DNA of 64,000 bases from a virus (taxonomy: Duplodnaviria > Caudoviricetes): IMG/VR virus record IMGVR_UViG_3300010882_000012. One strand, given 5' to 3'. Shown one piece after another: positions 33,521 to 54,523 of the stretch (its first letter is position 1; every line of letters begins with the position of its first letter). A program made the position numbers and the translations under genes. The notes beneath the pieces are model-generated. The model was not told where the DNA came from, ran no database searches, and saw only the letters and a program-made list of their open reading frames with translations.

Positions 33521-35236
33521 TTACTGCTTTACCACTTTAACCGTCCGTATCCCTATATCTGTATGAACTTTCACCATATAAACGCCAACGGATAAGTGGC
33601 TAATATTCAAACTATTATTTCTTATCTCAGTTTGTAGGATTTTACGCCCTTCAATGTTAAATACCTCTACGAATTTGACAACCTCATCGGTTTGAATATA
33701 GAGTTCCCCATTTGTAGGATTGGGGTAAACTACCAATTTTTCGATTTCGTTCTCCGTTACGCCAACTCCTATTTTAAATACAGCTGAAATTGTGCCATTC
33801 GATTGCACATTCGTAAATGTGTAGGTAGTTATAGCTCCTTTCGATTCACCGTTAACTAAAACGTTATCAATCACATAATTGGTTTTTGGAGCAATCGTAA
33901 ATGTAATATTGCCGCCTTCTTCAACTTTTGCATCGCCGAACGGATCTATCGTTCCCCAATCCGCATTATTTACGGTTGCTGTAATCGTATAAATATTGCC
34001 GTTTTGTTCATCCGTTTTGAATGTTGCCGAATTTGAAGGCGGTGATGCCAAATGTGTGGCGGTTTCCTTCTTTCGCTGTTTGAACGTATATGATGTGTTG
34101 GGCGTTAATCCGTTAAACACATTAGAGCTCTGCCAATTACCGTTATCCTTTTGATACTCACAACCTTCAACTGTATTCAATGTTATGGATGTAGGCGTTT
34201 TCGACTGTAATGTTGGTGTGGGCGGTGCTGTTTGGGTGGCTTTCGTAACTGTTGCTGTTGGTGATGAGGTCATACTGCCGATAACCTTTAAAGCCATATA
34301 ACCGCCGCTATTATCATAAAAATCTCCAACATAAATTGTTACGGCGATTTCTTTTCCGATATCATCAGCTGTTAAAGTATAGGTTTTACTATTGCCGCCA
34401 TCCACCGTAAGATAATAATCATCAATAATCGTACCATTACGTTTCCACCCATATTTTATTATTTCATAAGGCCACATTGAAAAATTGGAATGATTTACTG
34501 TTAATGTTTGACCGAAAACCGGATTGCCGCTAATTGACAAATTGGCACTGATTACGTTGATTGTGAAGTCTTTAACGAAATCGTTTGGAAATATAATATA
34601 TGCACTACCATCTTCATTAGGATATTGTATGGTTGCTCTAATTGTTGTGACTCCTTCATTTTCAGCCAAAAACCGATAAGCCAAACCACCCAAATGAGTT
34701 AGTGTGGCGTTTGCAGATCCGGGGTCAACCATTGACCACACTATTGATGGATATGACTGATTGGCTTCATAAGGAACAAATATATTATTATCAATCGGCA
34801 TATACAATGGTATATTGGCGACAGCAGTAGTTGGGATGTTGATGATGTCGGTGACTGAGAGGATGGCAGAGAAGTTTTGATTAGGCAGATTTTCGGTAAG
34901 TGGCTCTATATAAATGGATTCGGGTACAAACCGATAACCTTCTTTTTCCGGTATGAGATCTCCAAAACCACCCAGTGGAACTCCTAATACGTAATTCCCA
35001 TTTGCATTAGTTGTAGTAGATAATATATCACATCGTATGGTTGTGTTGGGTAGTGGTTGAGATGTTTGATAAATTCTAACAGTACCGGATACAGTTACCC
35101 ATTGAGCATTCGCTTTCAACGGATTGACTATTGACATTATTATAAATCCCAAAACAACTATTATAAAAGCAATAGTTGAGGGAATTCCGGTACCCACTTC
35201 ATTAGGGTAAGGTTTTAAATTTAAAAGATTTTTCAT
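33521..35236 (-). CDS. Host-type secreted Ig/FN3-like multidomain protein with T9SS type A C-terminal sorting domain
   Basis: Signal peptide ending ANA-Q; beta-sandwich domains; C-terminal VVYPNPTNGELYI...VFNIEGRKI...ISHLSVGVYMVKV...KVVKQ. Confidence 0.9.
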   Translation of the reverse strand: MKNLLNLKPYPNEVGTGIPSTIAFIIVVLGFIIMSIVNPLKANAQWVTVSGTVRIYQTSQPLPNTTIRCDILSTTTNANGNYVLGVPLGGFGDLIPEKEGYRFVPESIYIEPLTENLPNQNFSAILSVTDIINIPTTAVANIPLYMPIDNNIFVPYEANQSYPSIVWSMVDPGSANATLTHLGGLAYRFLAENEGVTTIRATIQYPNEDGSAYIIFPNDFVKDFTINVISANLSISGNPVFGQTLTVNHSNFSMWPYEIIKYGWKRNGTIIDDYYLTVDGGNSKTYTLTADDIGKEIAVTIYVGDFYDNSGGYMALKVIGSMTSSPTATVTKATQTAPPTPTLQSKTPTSITLNTVEGCEYQKDNGNWQSSNVFNGLTPNTSYTFKQRKKETATHLASPPSNSATFKTDEQNGNIYTITATVNNADWGTIDPFGDAKVEEGGNITFTIAPKTNYVIDNVLVNGESKGAITTYTFTNVQSNGTISAVFKIGVGVTENEIEKLVVYPNPTNGELYIQTDEVVKFVEVFNIEGRKILQTEIRNNSLNISHLSVGVYMVKVHTDIGIRTVKVVKQ

Positions 35237-35545
35237 AAGATTAAATTTTTTTGATTATTGTTTGTTTGATTATTTTAATTTGTTGTAATCGAAATCAATG
35301 TATTGTTTTGGTTTCGCCGTTGTTATATCCAATTTGTGCAATATGATAAAGTAGGATAACAACATTAAACTGATGTGGACTGTAACTAAAGCTGCCATAA
35401 GATTAAAAATTGATTGAGCTTCCAAACTATTCTGAATTGTCGCAAAAGGCAACTACCTTATCAAACTTACCATTTTGAGAAAGTTCTCTAAATCGAAAAT
35501 CTGTTATTTCCTTAATTTGTCTCAATTTTCTGTTTGACAGTTTCA

Positions 35546-35869
35546 TTATGCTATTCTTAAAAAGTTTAATTTTTTAAAACATCTCCACTCATTTCTTTCT
35601 GTATCAAAGTAAGTAAAAACCTTGTCACTTCTATCATATCCTTTCGGTTGTTGCTCAATTGGTACTTTATCTAACATTAAGTGTCCATATGCTTCTCTTG
35701 TGGTACCATCTATCTTCTGAAAATAGAATTTTACAATTTCCAACCTCATCCTTTTCTTTAGATAGTACAATTGCCAAGCTAACTTTAATGCTTCTGAGAG
35801 ATTACATCCAGAAATTTTCACAAACTTCCAGGTCTCATTCATGATTTGTCTTTTGTCCTCTGTCTTCAT
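35546..35869 (-). CDS. SH3 beta-barrel (WYL_2-like) protein
   Basis: LSEALKLAW...VKFYFQKIDGTTREAYG...TYFDTERNEWRCFK. Confidence 0.8.
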   Translation of the reverse strand: MKTEDKRQIMNETWKFVKISGCNLSEALKLAWQLYYLKKRMRLEIVKFYFQKIDGTTREAYGHLMLDKVPIEQQPKGYDRSDKVFTYFDTERNEWRCFKKLNFLRIA

Positions 35870-36261
35870 TATGCAATATCAGTTTTGAAAGTTAAGTAGT
35901 TACCATTTACTTTACAAGAAAGTGTTACAGTTTTGAAAGCTGGGCCGGCGGAAAGTTGCTTTGCAAAGTTTGGCCAAGTGCTCATATCTACACCTTCAAA
36001 AAAATCATTGTCCAAACGGTAAACAATTCCAAATGGTCTTTTTTGTGCTTTCACAAAGCTAACACCTTTTGCATTTGCGCCCATAAGAGGCAAGCATTCT
36101 AAGAACGCTTTTCTAAGTATTTTTTCATATTCTTTCCAATCTTCGTATTCTTTCTCGTCTTGCCAACGTCCCCAAAGATTAGCGATTAGACCTTCCATTT
36201 TTTCATAGATAACCTTATGGATTTCTGTGATTTTTTCATTCGGATTTAAGACTTTTGCCAT
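35869..36261 (-). CDS. Hypothetical protein
   Basis: LWGRWQDEKEYEDW...KRPFG. Confidence 0.75.
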   Translation of the reverse strand: MAKVLNPNEKITEIHKVIYEKMEGLIANLWGRWQDEKEYEDWKEYEKILRKAFLECLPLMGANAKGVSFVKAQKRPFGIVYRLDNDFFEGVDMSTWPNFAKQLSAGPAFKTVTLSCKVNGNYLTFKTDIA

Positions 36262-36295
36262 GATGTTTAAATTTTGATTTGATTGTTTTGATACT

Positions 36296-36370
36296 GTAAA
36301 AATACTAAAAATACTGATACGAAAGTGTTTAAAAAGAAAAAAGTTACTAACAATTTGTGCTAGTAACCTC
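36296..36370 (-). promoter_or_regulatory. Promoter motif copy 5 fused to terminator hairpin
   Basis: GGTTACTAGC-acaaatt-GTTAGTAACT + T-run. Confidence 0.85.
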
Positions 36371-36415
36371 TTTCCTTCGCATTATGAAAAAGAAAAATTT
36401 AAAAATATCGATTTG

Positions 36416-36907
36416 CTATTCGTTAATTCGAGTATCTACAACCTCATCGGGCACATAACTCGGAGCTGATGTTTCTATTCTCTGTGTGGAACCTGCATTA
36501 TTACCAAATGGATTAAAATTCCGGTCTAAAACTATGATATTATCGACAAAGTACTTTTGATCACCTCTGACACGCCATATGTTCTTGAGTCCCCAAACTT
36601 TATGATACACAACTTGCACTTTCCATCCATGAATAAGGGCGGAGTCCATAAGATTAATAATCTCCATACGCTTTTGTTTGGTAATAACGCGGTCAAATCG
36701 GTCGACGGAAAAATTAAAAGCATCTGTGCCGGTGTTCATTCCGGTTTGCGTAACATTAAGTTCACCTTCGTAAGATTTGAAGATAACACCTTCTTCGTTG
36801 AATTTCGTAAGGAATCCAACACGGTTTCCGTTTGAATAGTTTTCTTTGCAGCTGGTAAACGCTAAAGTTGCGACCAGCAACATGATTAAAAATTGAAATT
36901 TTTTCAT
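36416..36907 (-). CDS. Lipoprotein of unknown function
   Basis: Lipobox LAFTSC; YSNGNRVGFLTKF...GVIFKSYEGEL. Confidence 0.75.
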   Translation of the reverse strand: MKKFQFLIMLLVATLAFTSCKENYSNGNRVGFLTKFNEEGVIFKSYEGELNVTQTGMNTGTDAFNFSVDRFDRVITKQKRMEIINLMDSALIHGWKVQVVYHKVWGLKNIWRVRGDQKYFVDNIIVLDRNFNPFGNNAGSTQRIETSAPSYVPDEVVDTRINE

Positions 36908-36938
36908 TTTGATTGGTTTTTTAATTGGTTAAAAATGA

Positions 36939-37277
36939 TTATTGGTTTGATTTTCTATCAAGAGCTCTTTTCATTGAACTCTCATGATTTTCTTTTGTAG
37001 TAACTTTGTAGCAAGGTTGTCCACCTTTTAATCCGTATTCTTCCAACCATCTACGATCATTGATTTGCTGATAAAGCAAAGATTGTTCACTACTTTTTTT
37101 ACCATGTTTTTGGAACCAATGGCGAGAAACAACACCATTAACAACTAATCCGCGAGCAGTGTCAATAGGACGAATAATATCTTCAATTTGTTCACGAGTT
37201 AATGGTACAATACGAGCTTCAATTTTATTTAAAATTTCTACCCTAGCTGCATTTTTGTTTACTGATAATACTTTCAT
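36939..37277 (-). CDS. Hypothetical protein (start corrected to MKVLS)
   Basis: ATG follows the promoter leader. Confidence 0.7.
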   Translation of the reverse strand: MKVLSVNKNAARVEILNKIEARIVPLTREQIEDIIRPIDTARGLVVNGVVSRHWFQKHGKKSSEQSLLYQQINDRRWLEEYGLKGGQPCYKVTTKENHESSMKRALDRKSNQ

Positions 37278-37299
37278 GTCTTTGAATTTTGATTGATTA

Positions 37300-37375
37300 A
37301 TAAAAATACCACTTTTTTCGATACGAGTTTCATTAAAAAGAAAAAAGTTACTAACAATTTGTGCTAGCAACTTTC
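37300..37375 (-). promoter_or_regulatory. Promoter motif copy 6 fused to terminator hairpin
   Basis: AAAGTTGCTAGC-acaaatt-GTTAGTAACTTT + T-run. Confidence 0.85.
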
Positions 37376-37399
37376 TTCACTATCAAAATTCAAAATTCT

Positions 37400-38665
37400 C
37401 TAAAATAATTTTTTCTGATCTTGTATTACAATATAACGATCTTCCATGCTGGATAATTTTGGTTTGGGAATCGGTACGATATACCGTGGATCTTTTTGTT
37501 GTTGAAAAAACAGACTACTTTTACTGTTAATAGGACCAATTGGCTGAAAATAATAACTGAAATCACTATTTTTATTACCATGTACTTTCTTTATAATCTG
37601 CATGATTTCATCTTTTGATAAAGAATGATTTTTTAATTGCATCGTAGATAAAATCATACCACGTGCTGACATATCATGTGGACAACGACCTAATCCTTTA
37701 CCACGTTGATATGGTTTTCTTTCTTTTGTTTCTACTACCGGAATTACTTTTTTGCAAGATTGTCTAACTTTTCCTTTTACAACAGGTTTTTCTACCGGAG
37801 CTTCTGTTACAAGTCTGAAAGTGGATTCCATTTTTGTAGCACCAGATTCTACTAATAGAAGAAAACGTTTATCAGTTTTATTCTGCTTCAAAAGAGAAGA
37901 AAATGAACCTACACCATTTGTACTCGGTTTTTGAAAATAATGGATAAAGCAATTGCAATTATCGACAGTTTTTTCTAAAGTAGGATAAGAGGTACCAAGA
38001 AGAAATTCAAGTACTTCTCTCATAGTAACATCTTTTCCTTGTGCTTGAATCCAATCTAAACCCAGAGTACGGAGAGATTTCTTTACAGGTTCTACTTTCT
38101 TAGATGTGGTTGCAACCTCATCTTCAATTGGTTGTGCTTGAACAGGCATCGGCGGAATATGACGACAAGCAAATCCATTTTTAAACATGAATTCTGCCAG
38201 TAAACCTTTTTGAACTAATTTAGAAAGCGATTCAGATAAAGCACCCAAGATAATGGATTCTTGCACATGTAACGGACAAGCTTTGTATGCATCTGCATTC
38301 ACATAGTTATTGTAAAGATCTCGCATTGCTAACGCATCATTGTGATCTTCATAGATAAGACCATCTGCCATAGTATTGTCCTTTTTACTAAGGATGATTG
38401 TTCCAGTTTTCATTTTGATATTGTTTAAAGTTAATTTTTGTTTTACCTCAGTTTTAAGTACTTGATTCCACCGTGCTGCTAGCATACTGTGACCGATGTG
38501 AAATCCGTTACAAATAGGGCATTGGTATGCATCAAATGGAGCTCCCATACTAAGTGTTACACCTTCTGCTGCTTTTTGTGCAATTTCCAACGTTTCATAT
38601 GCTTTCTTTACTTTGTTTCCTTTAGTAAAATGAGCATTTTTCTTTTGTTTTAGTGTTAGTTCCAT
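37400..38665 (-). CDS. Basic multidomain protein co-transcribed with PARP (Zn motif plus two repeated helical modules)
   Basis: YQCPICNGFHIGH; two repeats ending HYF...KTDKRFL and YYF...KDPRYI; starts 1 nt after the PARP stop. Confidence 0.8.
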   Translation of the reverse strand: MELTLKQKKNAHFTKGNKVKKAYETLEIAQKAAEGVTLSMGAPFDAYQCPICNGFHIGHSMLAARWNQVLKTEVKQKLTLNNIKMKTGTIILSKKDNTMADGLIYEDHNDALAMRDLYNNYVNADAYKACPLHVQESIILGALSESLSKLVQKGLLAEFMFKNGFACRHIPPMPVQAQPIEDEVATTSKKVEPVKKSLRTLGLDWIQAQGKDVTMREVLEFLLGTSYPTLEKTVDNCNCFIHYFQKPSTNGVGSFSSLLKQNKTDKRFLLLVESGATKMESTFRLVTEAPVEKPVVKGKVRQSCKKVIPVVETKERKPYQRGKGLGRCPHDMSARGMILSTMQLKNHSLSKDEIMQIIKKVHGNKNSDFSYYFQPIGPINSKSSLFFQQQKDPRYIVPIPKPKLSSMEDRYIVIQDQKKLF

Positions 38666-38666
38666 A

Positions 38667-39938
38667 TTAACGCTCTATAATTTCAACGATATAACGAATT
38701 GTTGACTGTTCTGTAGAATAAACCATAAACTCATTATTACGAATTGAAGTGCCGGCATGAGCATAAACACTATCAAAACCTTCACGATCAAGTTGTTTTT
38801 TATTTAAATCATAACAAGCCGATGTATGATTATAGATATGTTTTTGATTGCCCACATGAACATCATAGATTGCTAAGAAAGCTTTTTTGCTACAACCCTT
38901 TGCCCAATAAGAACCAGAAAGAGAAGTATATCCAATAGATTTTTGTGCTTTATCTGCAAAATAAACAGAATTTCCATACATTGCACCTGTAATTATTACA
39001 CCCGCCGGACGTATTAAAAGTCCGGTTTGCAAGATGTTCATCCAATTTTCATTTCTGCTACCATGCCAAAACAGTTCGCATTTTTGGTTTTTGGCTTTTG
39101 CAACATAGCTCTTAAAGTTTCCTTCTGTTTTTTTGTTTACCACAGAAAAAGCTCTTTTGTACTGACCGGAATTGTTTCCCATCATTTTCTTAATGAGTTC
39201 TGCTTCTTTAGAAGACACTTCTTTAACTTCTAGTCCAAGTACCTCAAGCATGTCCATAGTGCTCTTAGAATTGCCCGTTTGCGTCCTGGTGGCTTCTTTT
39301 TGTTTCTTTATTGCTTCAACCTGACCCGCCATAACGTCCAAAAGTTTTTGTTCATCATCTAGCATTCGTTGTAATGATGAGGTAGAGTATCCGCTTTCTA
39401 CAAGATGGTTTTTTACGTGAGCCATTTTTCTCGGTACTGTTCGATACAATTTCAACAAACAATCATTAATAGTTGTTGAAGTACTTTGATTTCTTAAATG
39501 ACCAACCAAGTTGTCAAGGATTTTTTGAGCCTCATCAACTTGTGCTTGTGTAACATCTTCTTGAGTTACAGAATAGTTTTCTTTAATGGTTTTGTTTGCA
39601 TATGCTTGGAGTTCGTCAATGAGTTGACGCACCATAGCATTCTGGATGGCGGTTACTTGTGCTCCGGTTGTAGCATCTTTGATATCGGCCTCAATCTTTT
39701 CAGTATAGAGGTGTGTGATATCATTGTAACCTTTTTTGGTTTTTTCACGATACTTTTTATCCCAATCCGACATAGGATAAGAGTGCTCTATGGAGGTAGA
39801 TTCTATCCTGCCATAAACCACTTTAAAATTTCCATCGTTCTGCTCGAACATATGGTAAAACTTGTTGTTATTGTCCCCTGTAACACAAACCAGTTTTTTA
39901 ACTTGTTTGCCTGGTACCGAGTAATCTGATATTTTCAT
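38667..39938 (-). CDS. PARP-family ADP-ribosyltransferase with N-terminal WGR-like domain
   Basis: NNNKFY...VVYGRI...EKTKKGY (WGR-like); FWHGS, GAMYGNSVYFADKAQKSIGY, RNNEFMVY = H-Y-E triad. Confidence 0.92.
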   Translation of the reverse strand: MKISDYSVPGKQVKKLVCVTGDNNNKFYHMFEQNDGNFKVVYGRIESTSIEHSYPMSDWDKKYREKTKKGYNDITHLYTEKIEADIKDATTGAQVTAIQNAMVRQLIDELQAYANKTIKENYSVTQEDVTQAQVDEAQKILDNLVGHLRNQSTSTTINDCLLKLYRTVPRKMAHVKNHLVESGYSTSSLQRMLDDEQKLLDVMAGQVEAIKKQKEATRTQTGNSKSTMDMLEVLGLEVKEVSSKEAELIKKMMGNNSGQYKRAFSVVNKKTEGNFKSYVAKAKNQKCELFWHGSRNENWMNILQTGLLIRPAGVIITGAMYGNSVYFADKAQKSIGYTSLSGSYWAKGCSKKAFLAIYDVHVGNQKHIYNHTSACYDLNKKQLDREGFDSVYAHAGTSIRNNEFMVYSTEQSTIRYIVEIIER

Positions 39939-39959
39939 ATGATATTGAATTTTGATAGT

Positions 39960-40018
39960 ACAAAAATACCGCTTTTTTCTTTACGATGAGAACCTAGATG
40001 GAAAAAGATACTAACAAT
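39960..40018 (-). promoter_or_regulatory. Promoter motif copy 7 (drives PARP unit)
   Basis: ATTGTTAGTATC...GTATTTTTGT, 59 bp. Confidence 0.85.
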
Positions 40019-40038
40019 TTCATGATAAGGTTTAAACT

Positions 40039-40127
40039 AAAAAAGTCCTTGATTACTCAAAGACTCTTTTAGACGTTCAAAAATCATTATTCACAAAATC
40101 TTGATAAATGAAAAAATCAAAAATTGT
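40039..40127 (-). ncRNA. Candidate ~85-nt U-rich small RNA with own promoter and terminator
   Basis: Lies between promoter copy 8 and hairpin terminator ~40039-40068; too short for a credible ORF. Confidence 0.55.
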
Positions 40128-40130
40128 ACT

Positions 40131-40189
40131 ACAAAAATATTGTAATTCTAGATATGAAAGTTTAGTTACATGAAAAAGTTACTAACAAT
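40131..40189 (-). promoter_or_regulatory. Promoter motif copy 8 (no downstream gene)
   Basis: 59-bp motif. Confidence 0.8.
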
Positions 40190-40195
40190 CTGTTT

Positions 40196-40575
40196 AAAAA
40201 GAAAAACGCCCATAGATTCTTTCTGGGCGCTTCTCGTCAGATTTTTGGGCGAAGGTTCTGTAACACCTTTTCTGGCAGCCTAATGGACCTAGTTGAAATC
40301 AATTGTTTTCTGTCCCGGCAGCATGCCCCATAAACCAAGATTCATTTCATGTTCAGGTTCTTGGTCGACCTGATTGCCGGCAAGGTGTTTTCGCTTTCGC
40401 TACGGATTACCTTCGGTGCCGGCAGGCATTCTAAAGACCTGACTCGCGATTCCCGAACGGTTCGCATTATAGCGGCGGGCTCGAGGAGGTCTGGTTTTTC
40501 CGAGTTGACGTTAGGATTCCGCGCGGAGATTCCTGGTTTCTGATCAGCCTACCAGGTAGTGTCAATCGGATGAGA
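40196..40575 (-). ncRNA. Candidate ~370-nt structured non-coding RNA (RNA-A)
   Basis: About 50% GC by hand count (187/370 for 40201-40570); multiple nested helices; own promoter (copy 9) and terminator (CGCCCA...TGGGCG + T-run). Confidence 0.75.
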
Positions 40576-40577
40576 TT

Positions 40578-40635
40578 GTAAAAATACTAAAAATATCAAT
40601 GCGAAAATTTAAAAAGAGAAAAAGTTACTAACAAT
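40578..40635 (-). promoter_or_regulatory. Promoter motif copy 9 (drives RNA-A)
   Basis: 58-bp motif followed by structured RNA instead of the usual A-rich leader. Confidence 0.85.
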
Positions 40636-40660
40636 TTAAACAATTTTTGATGAGGTTTAA

Positions 40661-40920
40661 AAAAGAAAAGAGTCCTTAGATTACTCTAGGACTCTCTTCA
40701 CCACCCAAATTGCTATTTGATTCCCCAATAGGTTGCAACCCTCCCAAGATTTCGGCATAGGTTCTTGGTTGACCGTCTTCTAGGTTGCTGGCGGTAATAC
40801 GCTTTAAAAGCTTCCGCATCTTGCATTAACCTAATCGTGATTTTTCACCCCGACCACACTATTTGGTTGTTTTCAGCCCGGTTGTGAACCTCCTCGATTA
40901 CTCGTTCGAGTCGACAATAG
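40661..40920 (-). ncRNA. Candidate ~220-nt structured RNA (RNA-B) plus terminator, in the 3' region of 40924..41751
   Basis: GC-rich hairpins; shares GGTCRACCAAGAACCT...AATCTTGG with RNA-A; terminator ~40661-40698. Confidence 0.65.
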
Positions 40921-40923
40921 ATA

Positions 40924-41751
40924 TTAAAACATGTCTGCTTTTAAAATACGGATACGAACATCCGGATAAGGAACTCCAGTATAACGAGAATAAGCAGCTT
41001 TTGCTTGATTTTTTGTCATTACAGCATCATAATAACGCTCTTCCTCATCCGGGAATTTAACAGGATGTCCAAAACAAACATAATCTCCTTTTTCAGGATA
41101 TGTAATACCTGCATCCTTATCATCAGTATCATCAATATCATCTTCAAGACGATATTGAGAATTTGCAAGCGCGCAAGGTTCATCATCAACTGTTGAAAAA
41201 AGCTCTGGATGGAATTCTTCAAGTTCTTCTAACGTAATTTCACCATAATGGATATTGGCTAAGTACTTTTTCAAATTTTCGCGGGTACCGGTCAAATTTG
41301 CGGAGGTGTTTCCAGTTACTTCAATTTCCAAATTGTAGTTTTGCAACACCTCTAAGGCCTCATCAAGTTCTTCTTCATCACATACCCAATCAACATCAAC
41401 AATGAATTGGTCATTAAGTCCGTAAAGGTCTGTAACCATTGCATTTACGGCTTGGTCATGTGCATGATCTTCATCATTCATTGCATTCAAAATGGTAAGC
41501 GCACGGAGATCATCCATAGCTTGTGCATCACAAAGAGATTTGAAGTAAATCCGGTAGTCTCCATTGTGTCTCCAGTCTATAACACCCTCATTTTTGAGGT
41601 CTTGCATGAAAGTTGAAACAATTTGCTGCGTTGCCCAAAAATCGTTGGCGCGTAATTCGTTTTTAACTTCTAAAGTTGTGGTTTCTCCGTTCAATTCGAT
41701 TAGAGTTTGTGCAACCACTTGCACATCATTTTTTGTAGTTGTCTTTTTCAT
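40924..41751 (-). CDS. Acidic multidomain protein with winged-helix-like N terminus
   Basis: TTTLEVKNELRANDFWATQQIVSTFMQDL...YRIY; D/E-rich middle. Confidence 0.8.
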   Translation of the reverse strand: MKKTTTKNDVQVVAQTLIELNGETTTLEVKNELRANDFWATQQIVSTFMQDLKNEGVIDWRHNGDYRIYFKSLCDAQAMDDLRALTILNAMNDEDHAHDQAVNAMVTDLYGLNDQFIVDVDWVCDEEELDEALEVLQNYNLEIEVTGNTSANLTGTRENLKKYLANIHYGEITLEELEEFHPELFSTVDDEPCALANSQYRLEDDIDDTDDKDAGITYPEKGDYVCFGHPVKFPDEEERYYDAVMTKNQAKAAYSRYTGVPYPDVRIRILKADMF

Positions 41752-41797
41752 AGCTAACTTTTTAAATGGTTTTTAATTTTGGTTAATTATTTTGAGA

Positions 41798-42244
41798 TTA
41801 TCCAAGCGGACAACCTTCTTTTCTGTAACAAGGGAATGTAGGACATCCGCCAATCATTTTTTCAGGTTCACGACAATACGCATCTTGTGGAAGCAAAGTT
41901 ACACGATCATTGTGGAATCGGTAGTAATCCGGATTTCTCTTGATATTATCAAGGTCAAAATACCACATTTTTGCAGGATTTCCATCTGTTCCTATCCAAC
42001 CTTGAAAATCGGGGTGAATTTCAAAAATTTCAGTAGGGATGTAGTGCTTAAGCAACTCTTCATCCATAGAATCGGAATAACAATAAAGACCTTTTCTAAC
42101 AGGTCCTTCTGACTCAGTACCCGCGAAAGTTCTCATATTACTGCCCATTTCGATGTCTCGGTCTACGTCAATAAAGTAAAAACCGCCCTCACCATTATGG
42201 TGCTGAAAGAAGATGTCTAAAAATTTAATTTCAAGTGATGTCAT
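41798..42244 (-). CDS. Hypothetical protein
   Basis: First gene after promoter copy 10. Confidence 0.75.
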   Translation of the reverse strand: MTSLEIKFLDIFFQHHNGEGGFYFIDVDRDIEMGSNMRTFAGTESEGPVRKGLYCYSDSMDEELLKHYIPTEIFEIHPDFQGWIGTDGNPAKMWYFDLDNIKRNPDYYRFHNDRVTLLPQDAYCREPEKMIGGCPTFPCYRKEGCPLG

Positions 42245-42264
42245 GCTAATTGAATTTTGATACT

Positions 42265-42323
42265 GTAAAAATACTGCTTTTTTCTTTATAATGAGGCCCT
42301 AGATAGAAAAAGTTACTAACAAT
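42265..42323 (-). promoter_or_regulatory. Promoter motif copy 10
   Basis: 59-bp motif. Confidence 0.85.
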
Positions 42324-42541
42324 TTAACTATTATGGTAAAGAAACAAAAATAGTCCATGTGTTATCCTCTAAATAGAGAATTTTTTGTTCTACTTTCACA
42401 ATATTATTAATAGCCGGTATTTTCAAACCATCTCCTTTATTAAGATATAGTAAACCTTGATTGTTTGATGTTACTATTAATCCGTCAGAAAGTACAGATG
42501 CAACATTTTAATTGAAATATTGTGTTCCATATCAGTAAATT

Positions 42542-42805
42542 TTAATCGTTACGTTGAAAAACTATTGGAAATTCGTCAAAAACTCCGTCAATGAAGTAAT
42601 TATTGGTTAAATCGTAAATTCCTCTCGGAAAGTACCGTAAATCTGGTAATTCATTGTATTCGAATCCCCATTTATCATTGAAAATCTCAAACATACGACG
42701 TCTTGGATCTTCATCTGTTATTTTTACAAGGAGGTCAACATCAAAAGTTATATCATTGTGTCGATGTACGTGATGACCACAAAAACTAAAATAGGATGTT
42801 TTCAT
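42542..42805 (-). CDS. Hypothetical protein
   Basis: YFSF.GHH...RRRMFEIFNDKWGFEY. Confidence 0.7.
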   Translation of the reverse strand: MKTSYFSFCGHHVHRHNDITFDVDLLVKITDEDPRRRMFEIFNDKWGFEYNELPDLRYFPRGIYDLTNNYFIDGVFDEFPIVFQRND

Positions 42806-42810
42806 AATTC

Positions 42811-43179
42811 TTAAGATTGATGAGGTGAATTCACGTCTGCATTTTTCAAAAAGAGTTCCATAGCTTTCTTTTTACTGATATTGTCCGGAATTTTAAATCC
42901 GTTAGGACATGTAACACCTACAACATTAGCTCCTCTAAATCTTTCTTCTACTGATTTTTGGTTTTTCATTTGTTTTTCCATCTTTTTCATCCATCCGGAA
43001 GTTCCTTTACGAATAGCTTTTTGCATGGGGCTCATTTTACGATATTTTAACCATTTTGGTACGAAATTGGCTGCCAGATACATTACTATAATAATGATAC
43101 CAGCCCACATTTCGAAAATTGCAAAAATGATAATGGTCAAAACCGCTAAAATTGCAAGGATAATTGATAATCTGTTCAT
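42811..43179 (-). CDS. Membrane protein
   Basis: Two N-terminal hydrophobic segments. Confidence 0.7.
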   Translation of the reverse strand: MNRLSIILAILAVLTIIIFAIFEMWAGIIIIVMYLAANFVPKWLKYRKMSPMQKAIRKGTSGWMKKMEKQMKNQKSVEERFRGANVVGVTCPNGFKIPDNISKKKAMELFLKNADVNSPHQS

Positions 43180-43732
43180 GTTTTTAAATTTTGATTGGTT
43201 AATTTTTGATTAAAAGTAGGATACAAAAGCATTATGTTGGATATCTTCTGCTTCTAGTCTTTCCATTCTGCGTAAACCTGCATCTATCATACGATCTTTT
43301 TCTTGTTCATAAAGATGATCTGCAATATCAGCAAGGGCATCATTTGTCAGCTCTTCAAACTGACAATTTTCTTCATCTTGATTGCATCTGTCAGCAAATG
43401 GACAGTCAAAACAAGAATCGGGGGTGAAAATTTCATCCGGATCCATAATTAGTTGAATTTTTGATGTTTAACAATTTCTCTAAGTACCGGAATATCCTTG
43501 GTATAGACCGGAAGAACTGTTGCACAAGAGATTTGACGTTTTTCTATCTGAGCTTTTGCTTGCTCTTCATTAGGATACAAAGTTTCCAAATCTATCTTAC
43601 CTGATAGATGGTCTAAAATTGCATACCATTTTTGTCTACCGGATTTATCCGATTGTTTTTCGTTGATGTAAGTTAAAGCCATATGATTTTGATTATTTTT
43701 AATTACTTTTTTAAGGAACGGAATAGTAGTTT

Positions 43733-44119
43733 CTAATCCCTACCTTCTACCACTTCAAACTTGGTCTGAAAATTACCTTCATATGTGATGTTTACCAAGG
43801 TAGAATTCTCTATGCAATGGTTGTAGAGTTTACGTTTTTTTGACATTTGGATAGACTCAAAAAAATAGCGACCATCATTGATTCTAGTTACTACAAAAAT
43901 TTCCCCATTATGGTTGTGCACAAAAAAGTGTCCTCTAGCACCCTTTAAATTAACAACTCGATTTCCATCGAGGTCAATACGGAAATAATAATTAGACGGA
44001 ACTTGTGGTTCTATTGCTTTAAGAGATCCACAAAATTGTACAAAACCTCCTCCATCTTTATTTGGTCTTCCTTGAATTTCAGTGAACATAGCACCTTGTG
44101 CGATAAAGGTCTTTTTCAT
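43733..44119 (-). CDS. Hypothetical protein
   Basis: 128-aa packed ORF. Confidence 0.7.
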   Translation of the reverse strand: MKKTFIAQGAMFTEIQGRPNKDGGGFVQFCGSLKAIEPQVPSNYYFRIDLDGNRVVNLKGARGHFFVHNHNGEIFVVTRINDGRYFFESIQMSKKRKLYNHCIENSTLVNITYEGNFQTKFEVVEGRD

Positions 44120-44130
44120 AGTTTTAAATT

Positions 44131-49040: not shown

Positions 49041-49874
49041 TTAGATCCATTCTATTACAGTCGGATCATAGTTTTTGTACATCGGAGTTTTGTAATCCTT
49101 TTCTGTTAATTTGTACCATTGAAAGTGTTTTGCAAGTTCGTTAAATTCTTTCACAACTTCTTTTTTAATTTTCTTGTTGTCAAAACGATAGTGTGAAAAA
49201 GTCATACCACAATCTGAATCAGTGTAAGAATCACATGCCGATTTTGTAATTTTAATAGCTTTTTCTATTGCTTCTAAAACAGTCTCTCTTGTTACTAATG
49301 GTATTTCTTCAACTGGTTCCGGTTCATTAATAACATTGATGTGATTAAGTTTTAAAATTGCAATTGCTTGACGATGAGATTCATCTGTAACACAAGCACA
49401 ACAACTTGCATCTACAGTAATTTTGGCTTTACGATAGATTGCTGATAAGATAATAGCATTTTGTAAAACACAAATTCCGGTACACAATCCAAAAAGTTCA
49501 ATTTCATCAATATCCTCTTCATAGATATTATAGGATTCAAAAAACTCTTGCCATTTTACAGTACCATGTGCAAACTTTGTAATAGCACTTGAATTTTGTT
49601 CTAAGAGTTCTTTCAGTTCCGGATGTAATTCAGCTCCAGGAGTATCATAAACACAATGACATACACGTAAGTCTCTACCTTCTAAAGTATGCTCATACTT
49701 GTATGGATCCATTGGATGATTATGGTTGTCAAAAGAATGTGCAATAAAATCTCCATTCTCTATGGCTTTTTCAATTTTAGTTTTACAGTTTGCTATGATA
49801 GCATGTGCATGTGGAGAACCTAAAGTTCCTGTAATAAAATCATTTTCTAAGTCGATTGCTAAAGTAATTTTCAT
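49041..49874 (-). CDS. pncA: Nicotinamidase (isochorismatase family) with extra C-terminal domain
   Basis: AIDLENDF..GTL, metal-binding D-x-H and HC, TKF, GLCTGICV catalytic Cys; adjacent to nadE. Confidence 0.8.
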   Translation of the reverse strand: MKITLAIDLENDFITGTLGSPHAHAIIANCKTKIEKAIENGDFIAHSFDNHNHPMDPYKYEHTLEGRDLRVCHCVYDTPGAELHPELKELLEQNSSAITKFAHGTVKWQEFFESYNIYEEDIDEIELFGLCTGICVLQNAIILSAIYRKAKITVDASCCACVTDESHRQAIAILKLNHINVINEPEPVEEIPLVTRETVLEAIEKAIKITKSACDSYTDSDCGMTFSHYRFDNKKIKKEVVKEFNELAKHFQWYKLTEKDYKTPMYKNYDPTVIEWI

Positions 49875-49886
49875 ATGATTAAGTTT

Positions 49887-50780
49887 TTAAAGTTGAACAT
49901 TTTTAATTAATTTGAACATTGGTATGGCTTTAAGTTTATGCTGCGACATCAGATTTCTTCCCATTACTGTTTTCACTATACCGGGTCGGATATTTTCATT
50001 TGCAATAAATTCCGGTGTCGCATAAAGTATGAAATCATCAAGTTGTTCATATGAAAATCCAAGTTCTTCTTCATCAGATTGACCTTCCCAAAGATCAGCA
50101 CTTGGTTTTTCATTGATGATAGATTTCGGAACACCAAGATATTCAGCAAGAACATAAACCTCTCTTTTTGTGCACCAACCGAGAGGATTAAGGTCACATG
50201 CACCATCGCCCCATTTTGTAAAATAGCCACAATAACGTTCTGAAAGATTGCCGGTACCTATTACAAAACGACTCATGAGTTGTGCCATTTGATAAAGGTG
50301 ATTCATTCGGATACGAGCACAAACATTAGCTTTTGCCAGATTTGCTGCTTCTGGTGTAAAAGATTTATCCCAAAAAAGACTATTTTCTGTAACAAGCATA
50401 GAATTGACTGTTTTGGTAATATTAAAAGTTTGCCATTCAAAGTCAAACTTGTCAACTAATTTCACACAGCGCTGCATAGAAGAGTTGTTTCCTCTTGACA
50501 TGGATTCTCCATAAGGCATGGATATGAGTTGCACCGGTACATTTGCAATTTGACAAAGTCTTGCAACAACAGAGCAATCTACACCGCCTGACATGCCAAG
50601 TACAACACCTTTGCGATTTGCTTTTGCTACAGCATTTGCAATCCAATCTGACATAAGATTAGCATAATGTGCAACATTTTTACTATCAATAATTTCTTGT
50701 TTTAGTTGAGCCGGCATGGGACAACTTTTGTTTAAATTTTCAGTATTTTCCATTTTTGTAATTTTAGAGGTTGTAAACAC
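49887..50780 (-). CDS. nadE: NH3-dependent NAD+ synthetase
   Basis: VLGMSGGVDC, ARIRM, GTGNLSE..GYFTKWGDG, KPSADLWEGQSDEEELG. Confidence 0.93.
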   Translation of the reverse strand: MFTTSKITKMENTENLNKSCPMPAQLKQEIIDSKNVAHYANLMSDWIANAVAKANRKGVVLGMSGGVDCSVVARLCQIANVPVQLISMPYGESMSRGNNSSMQRCVKLVDKFDFEWQTFNITKTVNSMLVTENSLFWDKSFTPEAANLAKANVCARIRMNHLYQMAQLMSRFVIGTGNLSERYCGYFTKWGDGACDLNPLGWCTKREVYVLAEYLGVPKSIINEKPSADLWEGQSDEEELGFSYEQLDDFILYATPEFIANENIRPGIVKTVMGRNLMSQHKLKAIPMFKLIKNVQL

Positions 50781-52461
50781 GTTTCATTTCTTTATTATAG
50801 AGAACTTTAATTTCATCCCATGAATTTAAGTAATAAAATTCTCCATCTTTGTAGAATTCTTTGAGTAAGTTTTTGTCTCCATATGCATCTGCTTCTTCAG
50901 GAGTCAAGTTGTCAATCATAGCATAGTTGTTTTTAGATTCATCCCAAATAACAACCGGTATACCGGTAGGAGATTTTTTAAAACTGTTCTTTTCAGATTT
51001 TACGAGTTTTTGAATTTTTTTGAAAACACCTGACATGATTTCTGCAATTCCTTTTAATGCAAAACCAAACGTATCTCTCGTAACATACTGATAAGTGAAT
51101 GAACCAATTCCAAAGCTAACGTTAATACTTGCAAATCCTTTGTCTCTAAGACGTTTGCAAATTTTGAAACATCTCTCAATTGTAATAGCATCACCGTAAG
51201 TAATTCCAATATGAGAATCATGTTCCTTAAAACCGTTTGCGTTTACAGTGCCACCGAATTCATTCCAAAGTGCTTCACACAATCCCAAATCTTCTACAGT
51301 CGGTGTGTACTCTTCATAGATATCTTTCCATGGATGATAAGCCGAAATCGAATGATCATCTTCTCTTGTTACTTTCCACCAGCTTCCATCTTTTAATCTG
51401 AAAATAACGCCTAATCTCATTTCAGCAAAACCATTATTATGATAGTATTTCTTTGCTTCTGCCATGGTTAAGAAAATTTTTGTTTCTCTTCCACAAACAA
51501 CTTCAACCGGATCACCACTGTCAGGGCGGATGAAAACTTTTCCAGGTCTTGATAAAATTTGAGGTTTTATCTCCGGCAATACAGTAGAGATAACATTCCA
51601 AAAATCGTAAGTATCTGAAACAATTGAGATGTTGCCGCTTGGATACTTCTTTGTAATAAGAGTAAGAAATCCACGAACCTCATCAATTCCCCAACTACAC
51701 ATTACAGAATGTTCGGTTGACGGATTACAAGAAATAGCTCCTTTTGGTTTTTGATAAAAAGCTTTAAGATAATTACGGACAGGAACAGTAGCTGAAACAT
51801 TAAAAGCAAGTAGATGTCCAGGACCTGTGCGATATGCTGCTTCCGGTTGATTCATGCCTCTCATTGAAAAGTCGCCGGCTTGATTATCAACTCGGACTTC
51901 ATCTACACCTGTTTCTCTTGCAAATTGGATGAGAATTTTTTTGTAAACGGATGAGATAGTCCCGGATGTCATTGGACTCCAGATGTAAGAAGAAAGTTGA
52001 GTTTCGATATAGCCAGGAATCCAGAAAAATCTTGGATCTGTATTCTCAATAGTAAACATTGCAACGCCAATAGGTACAAAAGTACCTTCCGCAAGTGCTT
52101 TTACCTTAATAGGAAGATATCCTAAAGCATGTAAAGCCCTAACATGTTCAGAACCATGATTAGCCGCCCATTCTGGATTTGTCTTTTTAAAGATATCTGT
52201 AATGGTCTCTTCGTATTCTGCAACTACATCTTCAACAGGTCTAGAGAAAAAGTAATCTTGGAAATTTTGTGTGATTTCTGCTAAAGCTCCTTGTAAAGAG
52301 TAAAAGCATACATGGTTAATTCCTTCTGCTCGTGACATCCGTGGAATCCAAGTTTCTAAAATCCATTCAATACCATCAGGATATTGGGACATGTGACAAA
52401 TTTTGTAGACATCTGTCATGTCCATTGGATTTTTGATCATTCTGTCGTTTAATTGAAACAT
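50764..52461 (-). CDS. NAMPT/NadV-family pyridine transferase, probably nicotinate-accepting
   Basis: TDVYKICH, DFSMRG, STEHS, SIVSDTYD, FIRPDSGDP, YGDAI, FGIGS, TRDTFGFA; SAT in place of the usual TDT. Confidence 0.9.
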   Translation of the reverse strand: MFQLNDRMIKNPMDMTDVYKICHMSQYPDGIEWILETWIPRMSRAEGINHVCFYSLQGALAEITQNFQDYFFSRPVEDVVAEYEETITDIFKKTNPEWAANHGSEHVRALHALGYLPIKVKALAEGTFVPIGVAMFTIENTDPRFFWIPGYIETQLSSYIWSPMTSGTISSVYKKILIQFARETGVDEVRVDNQAGDFSMRGMNQPEAAYRTGPGHLLAFNVSATVPVRNYLKAFYQKPKGAISCNPSTEHSVMCSWGIDEVRGFLTLITKKYPSGNISIVSDTYDFWNVISTVLPEIKPQILSRPGKVFIRPDSGDPVEVVCGRETKIFLTMAEAKKYYHNNGFAEMRLGVIFRLKDGSWWKVTREDDHSISAYHPWKDIYEEYTPTVEDLGLCEALWNEFGGTVNANGFKEHDSHIGITYGDAITIERCFKICKRLRDKGFASINVSFGIGSFTYQYVTRDTFGFALKGIAEIMSGVFKKIQKLVKSEKNSFKKSPTGIPVVIWDESKNNYAMIDNLTPEEADAYGDKNLLKEFYKDGEFYYLNSWDEIKVLYNKEMKRVYNL

Positions 52462-54444: not shown

Positions 54445-54523
54445 ACAAAAATAGCATAATTTTCTTTACCATGTTGTTTAAAAAGAGAAAAGTTACTAAC
54501 AATTTGTGATGCCAGTAACTTTT
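54445..54523 (-). promoter_or_regulatory. Promoter motif copy 15 fused to terminator; nearest motif upstream of the NAD operon
   Basis: AAAAGTTACTGGC-atcacaaatt-GTTAGTAACTTTT. Confidence 0.8.

Follow-up and report, generated by a model that had tools for sequence, protein, structure and literature searches.

Alt, ModA and ModB, the ADP-ribosyltransferases of phage T4, are mono-transferases of the R-S-E class and possess neither a WGR nor a helical domain. Their targets have been described in PMC8120803, which also reports in-vitro activity for the PARPs of Herpetosiphon and C. difficile, the Herpetosiphon enzyme requiring DNA. Phage PARPs carrying an H-Y-E triad have likewise been published, for Cellulophaga phage phi4:1 and for jumbo phages (PMC4245714, PMC7824862). 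Additionally, GenBank annotates WGR, regulatory and catalytic domains in the PARP of Klebsiella phage FBKp34. A literature search found no biochemical tests of the PARPs of phi4:1, FBKp34 and Xanthomonas phage XacN1. The window considered here, a stretch of 64,000 nucleotides from the viral record IMGVR_UViG_3300010882_000012, contains a PARP gene of a kind that is already recorded in other phages and is not new. The locus adds little on the enzyme itself; the new point is the partner gene with which it is paired.

The PARP gene and its relatives

Sequence comparison and structure prediction confirm that the open reading frame at 38667..39938 (-) encodes a putative PARP of 423 aa with the architecture claimed for it in a preliminary description: a WGR domain (approximately residues 12-78; nt 39705-39905, -), a helical regulatory domain (approximately residues 100-233; nt 39240-39641, -) and an ART catalytic domain (approximately residues 236-421; nt 38676-39233, -) with an intact H-Y-E triad. 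Firstly, the Pfam PARP family (PF00644) matches residues 243-419 at 76.7 bits (cut-off 26.7; E 2.2e-21) and also matches all 42 of the 42 relatives, while a Pfam search finds no ART family other than PARP at E <= 1. The triad resides in the motifs H292-G-S, Y326-F-A and N402-E403. Alignment of the family shows H292, G293, S294, Y326, K333, Y337 and E403 to be invariant (42/42); E403 pairs with the glutamate of the PARP1 NEY motif in a phmmer alignment, and K333, S334 and Y337 align with the KSANY segment of the same protein.

Secondly, the N terminus is indeed WGR-like. Pfam WGR stays below threshold for the window PARP alone (E 0.099) and is found at E <= 0.01 in nine of the 42 relatives (best 1.6e-6), and a profile confined to the first 105 residues matches the WGR structures of PARP3 (2eoc_A, E 3.4e-4) and, at E 0.05, of PARP2, the NNNKFY and [W/Y]GRVG signatures being in alignment. 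The motif itself reads Y42-G43-R44 in the window PARP and WGR, YGR or FGR among its relatives. Thirdly, residues 130-230 align with the regulatory helices of PARP1 (phmmer), and the AF2 model (pLDDT 86.7, pTM 0.81, with low confidence in the loop at 311-318) places helices at 101-233; Pfam lists PARP_reg neither for the window PARP nor for any of the 42 relatives. Finally, from profile positions 15-17 to 361 the profile of the whole family runs colinear with PARP2 chains comprising WGR, HD and CAT, and the best Foldseek matches of the model are WGR-HD-CAT chains of PARP2 (6x0l_P, E 9e-20) and PARP1 (4dqy_C, E 1.2e-19), in alignments that span approximately 480 columns, HD included, at 16-22% identity. 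The predicted fold thus resembles PARP2 and PARP1 along its whole length, and its WGR domain resembles that of PARP3 by profile.

The preliminary description also noted that the triad glutamate is required for chain elongation in PARP1-type enzymes. The H-Y-E triad is necessary for this activity but is not sufficient, for PARP3 and PARP4 keep the triad and yet are mono-transferases, PARP4 being designated a mono-ADP-ribosyltransferase in PDB titles among the phmmer matches; the choice between poly- and mono-ADP-ribosylation is therefore not readable from the sequence of the window PARP.

Relatives of the window PARP number 2052 at E <= 1e-5, and the family occurs on 249 viral contigs, which fall into no fewer than 16 lineages at 60% identity, and on 113 genome-assembly contigs, mainly of Bacteroidota. 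A portal search with the single PARP protein returned only seven relatives, while one with an alignment returned 76 loci, with merely 21 contigs of at least 45 kb and hence a weak control; megablast of window positions 30000-50000 against the phage collection gave no match. The nearest relatives, at 38-48% identity, sit on genome-assembly contigs of Bacteroidota and Clostridia, some of them several Mb long. The label "eukaryote-like" given in the preliminary description is for this reason better replaced by "bacterial-type". Exchange of the PARP gene between Bacteroidota and their phages would be part of the best explanation. The source of the window PARP is a large phage of Bacteroidota. Its record of 146 kb holds 225 ORFs and is approximately 56% complete (CheckV), and absences reported for this phage therefore refer to about half of its genome.

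A winged-helix gene beside PARP

The next gene upstream of PARP (40924..41751, -) encodes a protein of 275 aa in which an N-terminal winged-helix domain (residues 1-80; nt 41512-41751, -) leads into a linker rich in acidic residues (27% D+E), with a conserved motif of approximately 45 aa at the C-terminal end. The AF2 model of this partner (pLDDT 91.9) contains helices at 7-21, 26-35 and 42-54 and strands at 58-62 and 67-71, and its predicted topology of three helices and a beta-hairpin wing is that of a winged helix-turn-helix. The best Foldseek matches are CzrA, MecI/BlaI, PadR, Fur and Zalpha (TM 0.6-0.68, E 4e-3 or worse), and a Pfam search of the domain finds no family at E <= 0.05 except stray matches. 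Because these matches are to generic winged-helix regulators and carry weak E-values, the partner could be a mere transcriptional autoregulator.

Finding relatives of the partner required a profile search, as a word-indexed search with the 275-aa protein returned that protein alone. The partner-domain HMM identifies a single ORF among the 225 of the 146 kb record, namely the gene next upstream of PARP. The domain is single-copy in 13 of the 28 PARP-bearing contigs that measure 105-425 kb; it lies no more than 3.2 kb from PARP in 11 of the 13, with a gene-to-gene gap of 4-337 nt in seven, while in two contigs it stands 17 and 33 kb away and in one (G020) on the opposite strand. When loci are sampled by the partner domain instead, a PARP on the same strand is found at 58-3441 nt in 13 of 24 viral loci. 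When they are sampled by PARP, the domain stands beside it in 14 of 80 phage loci (8/16 lineages) and directly downstream on the same strand in 47 of 80 genome-assembly loci. In Cellulophaga phage phi4:1 the partner is gp030, adjacent to the PARP gp031, and in some long partners the winged helix is fused to a second WGR domain. Together these data show that, in Bacteroidota as in their phages, PARP is usually accompanied by one particular small winged-helix protein.

The partner is nevertheless missing from many PARP loci and is thus not obligatory. None is found near PARP in the largest phage clade (49/80 loci) or near the PARPs of XacN1, FBKp34 and LR756500, the search having covered 4 kb on either side in XacN1 and FBKp34, and 33 of the 80 genome-assembly loci have none, six of these ending just after PARP.

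The PARP and winged-helix genes would form a two-gene module, in which the partner may be a DNA-associated co-factor, a regulator or an acceptor. A bolder version of this proposal, which we put forward tentatively and regard as possible rather than probable, is that the two constitute an as yet undescribed ADP-ribosylation system of two components, belonging to Bacteroidota and their phages, with the partner as a dedicated DNA-targeting or activating subunit or as an acceptor, and with phage use at nucleic-acid ends. A literature search that covered passages of PMC8120803, PMC5966428, PMC4245714 and PMC7824862 found no published description of the pairing. A complex prediction for the PARP and the partner winged-helix domain, scoring 0.00 against a mark of 0.32, gave no verdict and weighs on neither side. 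The pair offers a concrete two-protein system, with a cultured example in gp031 and gp030 of phi4:1 in Cellulophaga baltica, and could shed light on the targeting or regulation of a minimal PARP outside eukaryotes.

Insertion, promoter-like motif and NAD+ genes

As judged by comparison with related loci, a putative non-coding insertion of 985 nt (39939..40923, -) splits the partner-PARP pair in this phage, for the stretch is absent from relatives, in which the two genes are 4-30 nt apart. It contains GC-rich units bounded by promoter-class motifs at 40619-40635 and 40173-40189, together with terminator-like hairpins, and blastn with the GC-rich insert returned nothing from the 80 related loci or the phage collection. 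No Rfam family reaches its gathering score in the window. The best of the sub-threshold Rfam matches in 39800-41000, CsrC, reaches 22 bits against a cut-off of 61; it was rejected because GGA motifs number approximately five where approximately three are expected.

Upstream of PARP, at 40002..40018 (-), lies the promoter-class motif ATTGTTAGTAtCTTTTT, a copy of ATTGTTAGTAACTTTTT with one mismatch, and 33 nt past it, 22 nt ahead of the PARP ATG, is a TATTTTTG box (39961..39968, -) that fits TAnnTTTG, the -7 consensus of Bacteroidota promoters. The window holds 20 matches to the motif where 2.17 would be expected, and the 146 kb record holds 25 copies, 23 of which are on the PARP strand. The claim of a dedicated phage promoter hence survives in part: a promoter-like motif occurring well above chance does stand upstream of PARP, but it is one of 25 general copies and is not special to this gene. 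The PARPs of the closest relatives have no such element, because the partner gene immediately precedes them. TATAAATA, a T4-type late-promoter word, is found ahead of none of the 225 ORFs of the record.

On the other side of PARP, an orphan ORF of 421 aa (37400..38665, -) is joined to it by a TAA-T-ATG junction, and the next promoter-class motif beyond that junction lies at 37342-37358; from this layout the ORF is most likely co-transcribed with PARP. It has no relative near any of the 80 related PARP loci, no Pfam or NCBIfam match and no usable Atlas match, and otherwise yields one weak PHROG match and one marginal PADLOC match (SduA, E 0.0024, 14.5 bits). Such an orphan companion, together with the disruption of the PARP-partner pair by the insertion, might suggest that PARP is a recently acquired host gene without adaptive function in the phage, or an inactive enzyme. 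This is very improbable, given that the frame is intact, that the catalytic residues are all conserved across the 42 relatives, and that the spread of the family over 249 viral contigs and at least 16 lineages argues for long retention of PARP in phages.

An NAD+ gene cluster (49041..52461, -) lies 9.1 kb from the PARP start, in agreement with the NAD+ salvage genes reported at about 10 kb in the preliminary description. The cluster comprises an isochorismatase or nicotinamidase-like gene (49041-49874, -), NadE (49887-50780, -) and a gene of the NAMPT/NAPRTase family (50764-52461, -). The copy of the promoter-class motif closest to the cluster on its upstream side (54487..54503, -) is 2 kb away from the NAMPT-family start, and small ORFs lie between the two.

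These genes figure in the suggestion that PARP serves host take-over or anti-defence while the phage NAD+ genes replace the NAD+ that it consumes, a reading that we consider rather unlikely. The motif with its host-type box, found on one strand in 23 of 25 copies, is located among small ORFs that form a block of the sort usual in early regions, and the NAD+ genes share that block. Phage PARPs have been suggested to act like phage ARTs (Iyer et al. 2021, PMC7824862). Consistent with take-over, too, is the presence of an NAPRTase-family gene in 20 of 27 PARP-bearing contigs of at least 100 kb and in 9 of 11 near-complete ones. This co-occurrence is, however, not significant when set against size-matched PARP-negative contigs (3/7; Fisher p = 0.18), controls that are few, incomplete and partly redundant, and physical linkage is lacking, with NadE no more than 10 kb from PARP in 3 of the 80 related phage loci and an NAMPT-family gene in one. 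Furthermore, the phage also has a gene for an NAD+-dependent DNA ligase with this class of promoter motif, and the rebuilding of NAD+ is by itself an established means of counter-defence (bioRxiv 10.1101/2024.02.11.579819), so that the NAD+ genes need no PARP as explanation. The proposed coupling, in which the salvage genes would recycle the nicotinamide released by PARP, is accordingly not yet supported by gene distribution. On genome-assembly contigs the PARP-partner pair occurs amid housekeeping genes, which speaks for a function not confined to take-over.

Gene neighbourhoods, proposed mechanism and described systems

The neighbourhoods of PARP point more towards nucleic-acid end metabolism than towards host take-over or anti-defence. 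An RNA ligase, an ATP-dependent DNA ligase, RlaP or RtcB is encoded in the fetched locus of 7 of 16 phage PARP lineages, an association dominated by one syntenic clade, with RNA ligase in cluster 0 only; the ligases of the present genome are far from PARP. The phi4:1 PARP is flanked by a CCA-adding/poly(A) polymerase and a DNA ligase, and a PolyA_pol+HD gene follows PARP in five genome-assembly loci. Annotated recurrent neighbours in genome assemblies include the housekeeping genes for a tRNA synthetase, a peroxiredoxin, SCO1 and an acyl-CoA dehydrogenase, and no recognised defence gene is among them. As to erasers of ADP-ribosylation, the 146 kb of this phage, a record approximately 56% complete, yield no PARG, macrodomain or ARH gene; among the 28 PARP-bearing contigs, Macro occurs in four, ARH in seven, bacterial-type PARG in none and any of these in ten, and 4 of 11 near-complete contigs carry an ADP-ribose hydrolase gene.

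Housekeeping neighbours also weigh against a further explanation, namely that the pair is a toxin-antitoxin-like or abortive-infection module used against competing phages or as an addiction element. Upon encountering foreign nucleic-acid ends, PARP would then drain NAD+ or modify essential targets, and the winged-helix protein would repress or neutralise it. The gene pair is self-contained in otherwise variable surroundings, is spread patchily over Bacteroidota, Clostridia and many phage lineages, and recalls the RES-Xre and ParST modules, in which an NAD+-consuming enzyme likewise stands next to an HTH-type protein. Apart from the lack of recognised defence genes in the annotated genome-assembly loci, however, PARP has its own predicted autoinhibitory domain and so needs no antitoxin, and PADLOC at E <= 0.01 returned nothing for the window PARP, its partner, the PARP of genome-assembly locus L232 or three genome-assembly partners; besides the SduA match of the 421-aa ORF, a CARF-type model gave one marginal match (E 0.0033, 14.5 bits), to the other genome-assembly PARP, that of L241. 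We judge the explanation to be decidedly unlikely.

The reading that we favour, with moderate confidence, is that of a bacterial-type PARP which forms a module with its winged-helix partner, is probably produced early and functions in the metabolism of DNA or RNA ends. If PARP1-3 and those bacterial PARPs that have been tested are a guide, the WGR domain would bind a nucleic-acid end or break, and this binding would loosen the autoinhibitory helical domain; the catalytic domain would then attach ADP-ribose from NAD+, as single units or chains, with release of nicotinamide. Likely acceptors would be PARP itself and nearby proteins, and possibly nucleic-acid ends. Through the insertion the two genes would have come apart, and PARP would have gained a separate copy of a general host-type phage promoter, from which PARP would probably be made from early in infection.

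Comparison with described systems reveals both similarities and differences. Firstly, bacterial PARPs, namely those of Herpetosiphon aurantiacus and Clostridioides difficile CD160, have the compact layout of WGR, helical and H-Y-E catalytic domains seen in the window PARP, a likeness drawn from the published layout rather than from alignment (PMC8120803, PMC4245714). The published pairing of a bacterial PARP with an eraser is matched by a macrodomain gene directly before PARP in 11 genome-assembly loci, apparently of Clostridia type; the window copy, in contrast, is phage-borne, is paired with a winged-helix gene and has no eraser in 146 kb. Secondly, human PARP2 and PARP3 share the domain order (WGR-HD-ART), the WGR signatures and the H-Y-E triad with the window PARP, which differs from them in having no N-terminal extension, YGR in place of WGR and no listed PARP_reg match. 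Thirdly, T4 Alt, ModA and ModB are phage-encoded, NAD+-consuming ADP-ribosyltransferases, as the window PARP is predicted to be; with its H-Y-E triad, however, the latter falls outside the R-S-E class, and while Alt is packaged in the virion, the window PARP gene has an upstream promoter-like element.

Phage PARPs for comparison are gp031 of Cellulophaga phage phi4:1, gp111 of Klebsiella phage FBKp34 and ORF414 of Xanthomonas phage XacN1, all annotated as poly(ADP-ribose) polymerase and 24-30% identical to the window PARP over 94% of its length, but from lineages and hosts different from those of the window phage. Of these, phi4:1 resembles the window in possessing the winged-helix partner, unlike the surroundings of the XacN1 and FBKp34 genes. 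Should the proposed role of that partner prove correct, it would be a prokaryotic counterpart to the zinc fingers, HPF1 or linker histones of eukaryotic PARPs.

The PARP enzyme and its family

The PARP gene, whose coordinates are exact by ORF calling, encodes a protein of 423 aa on the minus strand (38667-39938). Its catalytic domain at residues 243-419 scores 76.7 bits against a Pfam cut-off of 26.7, a match to PHROG 23333 spans residues 20-420 (E 2.7e-56), and residues 130-341 align with a helical plus catalytic fragment of PARP1 in a phmmer search of PDB sequences (E 6.6e-15), a second stretch of which places N402-E403-F opposite N-E-Y of PARP1. Alignment of 42 relatives, 45-58% identical, revealed H292, G293, S294, Y326, K333, Y337 and E403 to be invariant; since H292, Y326 and E403 are among these residues, the intact H-Y-E triad reported in the preliminary description is both real and conserved.

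The WGR-like N terminus noted in that description is likewise borne out. Taken alone, the window PARP falls below the Pfam WGR threshold (E 0.099); nine of the 42 relatives reach this model (best 1.6e-6), and an N-terminal profile, restricted to the first 105 residues of 28 sequences, matches WGR domains of known structure from PARP3 (2eoc_A, E 3.4e-4) and PARP2 (E 0.05), its NNNKFY and [W/Y]GRVG pairing residue for residue with theirs. The motif reads YGR in the window PARP, and WGR, YGR or FGR among its relatives. Additionally, the whole-family profile is colinear with the WGR, helical (HD) and catalytic (CAT) chains of PARP2 from profile position 15-17 to 361. On this profile evidence, the N terminus of the window PARP is a WGR domain. 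The AlphaFold comparison proposed earlier gave a model (AlphaFold2; pLDDT 86.7, pTM 0.81) in which an N-terminal domain of four strands precedes a helical block (residues 101-233) and an ART fold, whose best Foldseek matches are WGR-HD-CAT chains of PARP2 (6x0l_P, E 9e-20) and PARP1 (4dqy_C, E 1.2e-19), aligned over ~480 columns. Among the Pfam matches listed for the 42 relatives there is none to PARP_reg, a point also made for bacterial PARPs in the available text of a review (PMC8120803).

At E <= 1e-5 the family numbers 2052 proteins, and the 120 listed are almost all ~400-440 aa long; it is present on 249 IMG/VR contigs. When prokaryotes were scanned at one genome per species, it turned up on a further set of 113 contigs; by title, the 80 listed are mostly Saprospiraceae, Cytophagales, Microscillaceae and other Bacteroidota, with some Clostridia, several of these contigs are several Mb long, and their PARPs are 38-48% identical to that of the window. 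Because the family is distributed across viral and genome-assembly contigs in this way, mostly in Bacteroidota, the window PARP is, judged by its relatives, a bacterial-type enzyme common to a host phylum and its phages, and the epithet 'eukaryote-like' previously applied to it is misleading.

A winged-helix gene beside the PARP gene

Upstream of PARP lies a 275-aa ORF (40924-41751, minus strand). Apart from PARP itself, no other ORF of the record has relatives that adjoin PARPs in several lineages. Residues 1-80 of this partner form a conserved domain (consensus NG.TTTLEVKNELR..GFWA.Q..VS), and a local HMM of the domain matches one of the record's 225 ORFs (E 1.4e-34). The domain occurs within +-4 kb in 14 of 80 PARP loci, from 8 of the 16 lineages into which PARPs fall at 60% identity. 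Of 28 PARP-bearing records, searched as whole contigs of 105-425 kb, 13 hold exactly one match. In seven of these phage contigs (G001, G002, G015, G016, G017, G019 and G024) the gap between partner and PARP is 4-337 nt; the distance is 985 nt in the window, 1.85 kb in G020, where the two lie on opposite strands, ~2.5 kb in G011, ~3 kb in G026, 17 kb in G012 and 33 kb in G003. The product of the per-contig proximity chances is ~1e-14 over nine non-duplicate contigs of partly dependent lineages; for a gene present once per contig of 105-425 kb, such closeness to PARP is far beyond chance.

With the domain as the starting point, 13 of 24 viral loci carry a same-strand PARP at 58-3441 nt, five of these PARP loci being new relative to the first set, and at least four of the remaining eleven have a PARP farther off on the same contig. 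Among genome-assembly loci, the domain is found in 47 of 80, on the same strand as PARP; the median spacing between where the PARP alignment stops and where the domain begins is 134 nt, and of the 33 domain-free loci six are cut short within 400 nt. By clustering, the partner is the only widely conserved PARP neighbour (44/79 genome-assembly loci). No match to the domain lies within +-4 kb of PARP in XacN1, FBKp34 and LR756500, and the largest phage PARP clade (49 loci) likewise lacks it.

An AlphaFold2 model of the partner domain (pLDDT 91.9) has three helices and then a beta-hairpin, and Foldseek returned only generic winged-helix DNA-binding domains, including CzrA, MecI/BlaI, PadR, Fur and Zalpha (TM 0.6-0.68, E 4e-3 or worse). 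Bar stray hits, the partner matches no Pfam model at E <= 0.05, and it matches none in PADLOC. Searching 1.84 billion representative proteins by profile identified 1190 relatives at E <= 1e-3. Genome-assembly partners are mostly 82-138 aa, counted from the first start codon, and phage partners carry an extra linker that is acidic or Ser/Thr-rich, that of the window partner being 27% D+E. Two of five scanned partners of about 290-345 aa contain a second WGR domain (Pfam E ~1e-5). Most phage partners also bear a conserved C-terminal motif (...T[RK][DN]QA[KR].AY...DVR..R), which in some loci of other phages stands alone as a small ORF 1.4-3 kb from PARP (L048:6752-7027, L071:8311-8571 and L072:6745-7185).

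Promoter class, NAD+ genes and the phage genome

The promoter-like motif ATTGTTAGTAACTTTTT has 20 matches in the window at <=3 mismatches, as compared with 2.17 expected, and 25 copies in the record at <=2 mismatches, 23 of them on the minus strand. Some 32-33 nt after most copies, including that of PARP (40002-40018, minus strand, by motif match), comes TATTTTT[AG] (39961-39968, minus strand, before PARP), followed by a conserved A-rich leader and ATG. A promoter 'dedicated' to PARP had been described; the motif is indeed present and far above chance, but with 25 copies the putative promoter element represents a general class of this small-gene block. The motif often forms the 3' arm of a 17-bp hairpin preceding a T run (e.g., 37340-37378 and 48955-48995, minus strand), so that terminator and next promoter would compose one cassette. 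One of only two plus-strand copies in the record (G000:C1:24645-24661, outside the window) lies ~70 nt ahead of where the gene for the NAD+-dependent DNA ligase begins, and this NAD+-consuming enzyme thus shares the promoter class of PARP.

Downstream, a 421-aa ORF begins one base past the PARP stop (TAA-T-ATG) and is probably co-transcribed with it; no relative of this ORF was found near the 80 related PARP loci. Upstream, the partner gene ends 985 nt before PARP, as opposed to 4-30 nt in the closest relatives. The intervening stretch contains two more promoter-class motifs, terminator-like hairpins and GC-rich sequence, the latter as two non-coding units of ~50% G+C (40195-40900, minus strand), each bearing its own promoter-class motif and terminator-like hairpin; about 380 nt of it (40195-40575), in a genome of ~30% G+C, has a fold z-score of -2.39. 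The GC-rich insert matches no Rfam family and nothing in related loci or deposited phages. Given this insertion relative to the short gap elsewhere, PARP's 'own' promoter is best read as a lineage-specific outcome of insertion.

The NAD+ genes encode an isochorismatase-family protein that weakly matches nicotinamidase (49041-49874), NadE (49887-50780; TIGR00552, 225 bits) and a NAMPT/NAPRTase-family enzyme (50764-52461; PRK09198, 411 bits; PHROG 448), with a weak NadD-like protein and a Prs-like protein (G000:C1:141107-142066, outside the window) elsewhere in the record. Of the salvage operon formerly placed under the same promoter class, the genes are present (49041-52461), but the nearest motif lies 2 kb upstream of the cluster. 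PARP and the NAD+ genes are not physically linked: within +-10 kb of PARP in the 80 viral loci, NadE occurs in three and a NAMPT-family gene in one. At contig level, 20 of 27 PARP-bearing contigs >=100 kb carry a NAPRTase-family gene, as do 9 of the 11 that are >=90% complete; as background, the available text of a preprint gives NARP1 plus NARP2 in 5.4% of sequenced phages, unmatched for genome size (bioRxiv 10.1101/2024.02.11.579819). Control contigs (>=45 kb, encoding a relative of the window phage's portal) carry NAPRTase in 4 of 18 PARP-negative cases and in 3 of 7 of those >=100 kb, all of the latter being incomplete and three apparently one lineage. The difference was not significant in this size-matched comparison with few, incomplete controls (20/27 vs 3/7; Fisher p = 0.18); a value of p = 0.0009, obtained with short fragments included, was set aside for contig-size bias. 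Coupling of PARP to NAD+ salvage is chemically sensible and unproven, and the NAD+ genes do not require it, since the NAD+-dependent ligase and known counter-defence roles account for them.

Erasers were sought in 28 PARP-bearing contigs including the window record: four encode a macrodomain, seven an ARH and none a bacterial-type PARG. As a macrodomain or ARH occurs in 10 of the 28, and in 4 of 11 near-complete ones, a phage-encoded eraser is not an obligate partner of PARP. In G007, G008, G010 and G013 (loci L041, L043, L047 and L058) the macrodomain gene lies ~2 kb from the NAPRTase-family gene, away from PARP.

The window belongs to a single viral record of 146,406 bp (29.9% G+C) that is ~56% complete (CheckV), so absences in it speak for half a genome; Pfam scans covered 221 of its 225 called ORFs. 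Its Pfam content is that of a T4-like myovirus, with gp32, a gp20-type portal, gp15, tail sheath, a split family-B polymerase, topoisomerase II and an SbcCD-like pair, together with nucleic-acid end enzymes (NAD+-dependent DNA ligase, RtcB and RNA ligase) and metabolic genes for Prs, CoaD and CoaE. CoaE (dephospho-CoA kinase) and CoaD (phosphopantetheine adenylyltransferase), encoded outside the window at G000:C1:130093-130671 and 144127-144621, perform the final two steps of coenzyme A synthesis. A 150-aa ORF (24769-25221, minus strand) matches seryl-tRNA synthetase in the N-terminal coiled-coil arm alone (Seryl_tRNA_N, E 2.8e-9), without the catalytic domain.

The nearest relative, a contig of 425 kb (portal 68% identical, PARP 57%), together with the ~56% completeness, makes the term 'jumbo phage' plausible. 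This 425,361-bp contig, which is both L194 and L007/G001 and whose 68% identical portal is of T4 type, was deposited in a bin labelled archaeon and looks like a mis-binned phage. A 571-aa protein with a type-9-secretion C-terminal sorting domain (33521-35236, minus strand) and a 1215-aa protein with nine He_PIG Ig-like repeats (1030-4677, minus strand) point to surface-exposed or adhesin-like phage proteins; these two, together with a TAnnTTTG-type box, which we take to be the promoter consensus of Bacteroidota, point to a host in that phylum.

Predicted role and known phage PARPs

In the large phage clade, genes for RNA ligase (37 loci), ATP-dependent DNA ligase (29) and RlaP nucleotidyltransferase (14) lie 1-3 kb from PARP, and a ligase or repair gene is present in the locus in 7 of 16 PARP lineages. 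The PARP of phage phi4:1 sits between genes for a CCA-adding/poly(A) polymerase and a DNA ligase. In genome assemblies, a PolyA_pol+HD gene follows PARP in five loci, a macrodomain gene precedes it in 11 and an ARH gene is divergently upstream in four. Owing to these nucleic-acid-end neighbours and the WGR sensor, a predicted break- or end-responsive ADP-ribosyltransferase is the best-supported reading of the PARP; it may alternatively modify host proteins for take-over, as first suggested, or the PARP and winged-helix genes may together constitute a conflict cassette. Overall, the original observation of the locus is confirmed and its interpretation partly supported.

The literature searched yielded no biochemical study of a phage PARP and, within its available text and with PMC6126934 outside the search, no published account of the PARP and winged-helix pairing. 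The kind of enzyme is already known from phages. Firstly, 16 deposited phage records contain the family, nine being annotated as PARP or ADP-ribosylation, and the GenBank note of Klebsiella phage FBKp34 names all three domains. Secondly, as far as their available text goes, Perina et al. (2014; PMC4245714) report that Cellulophaga phage phi4:1 and Aeromonas phage Aeh1 carry PARP genes and that three of four viral PARPs keep the triad, and Iyer et al. (2021; PMC7824862) mention jumbo phages that encode PARPs. It is the conserved PARP and winged-helix gene pair that is the finding to carry forward: gp030 of phi4:1, annotated as hypothetical, is a member of the partner family (E 2e-9; 3e-14 with a broader profile), and the pair is testable in this cultured Cellulophaga phage.
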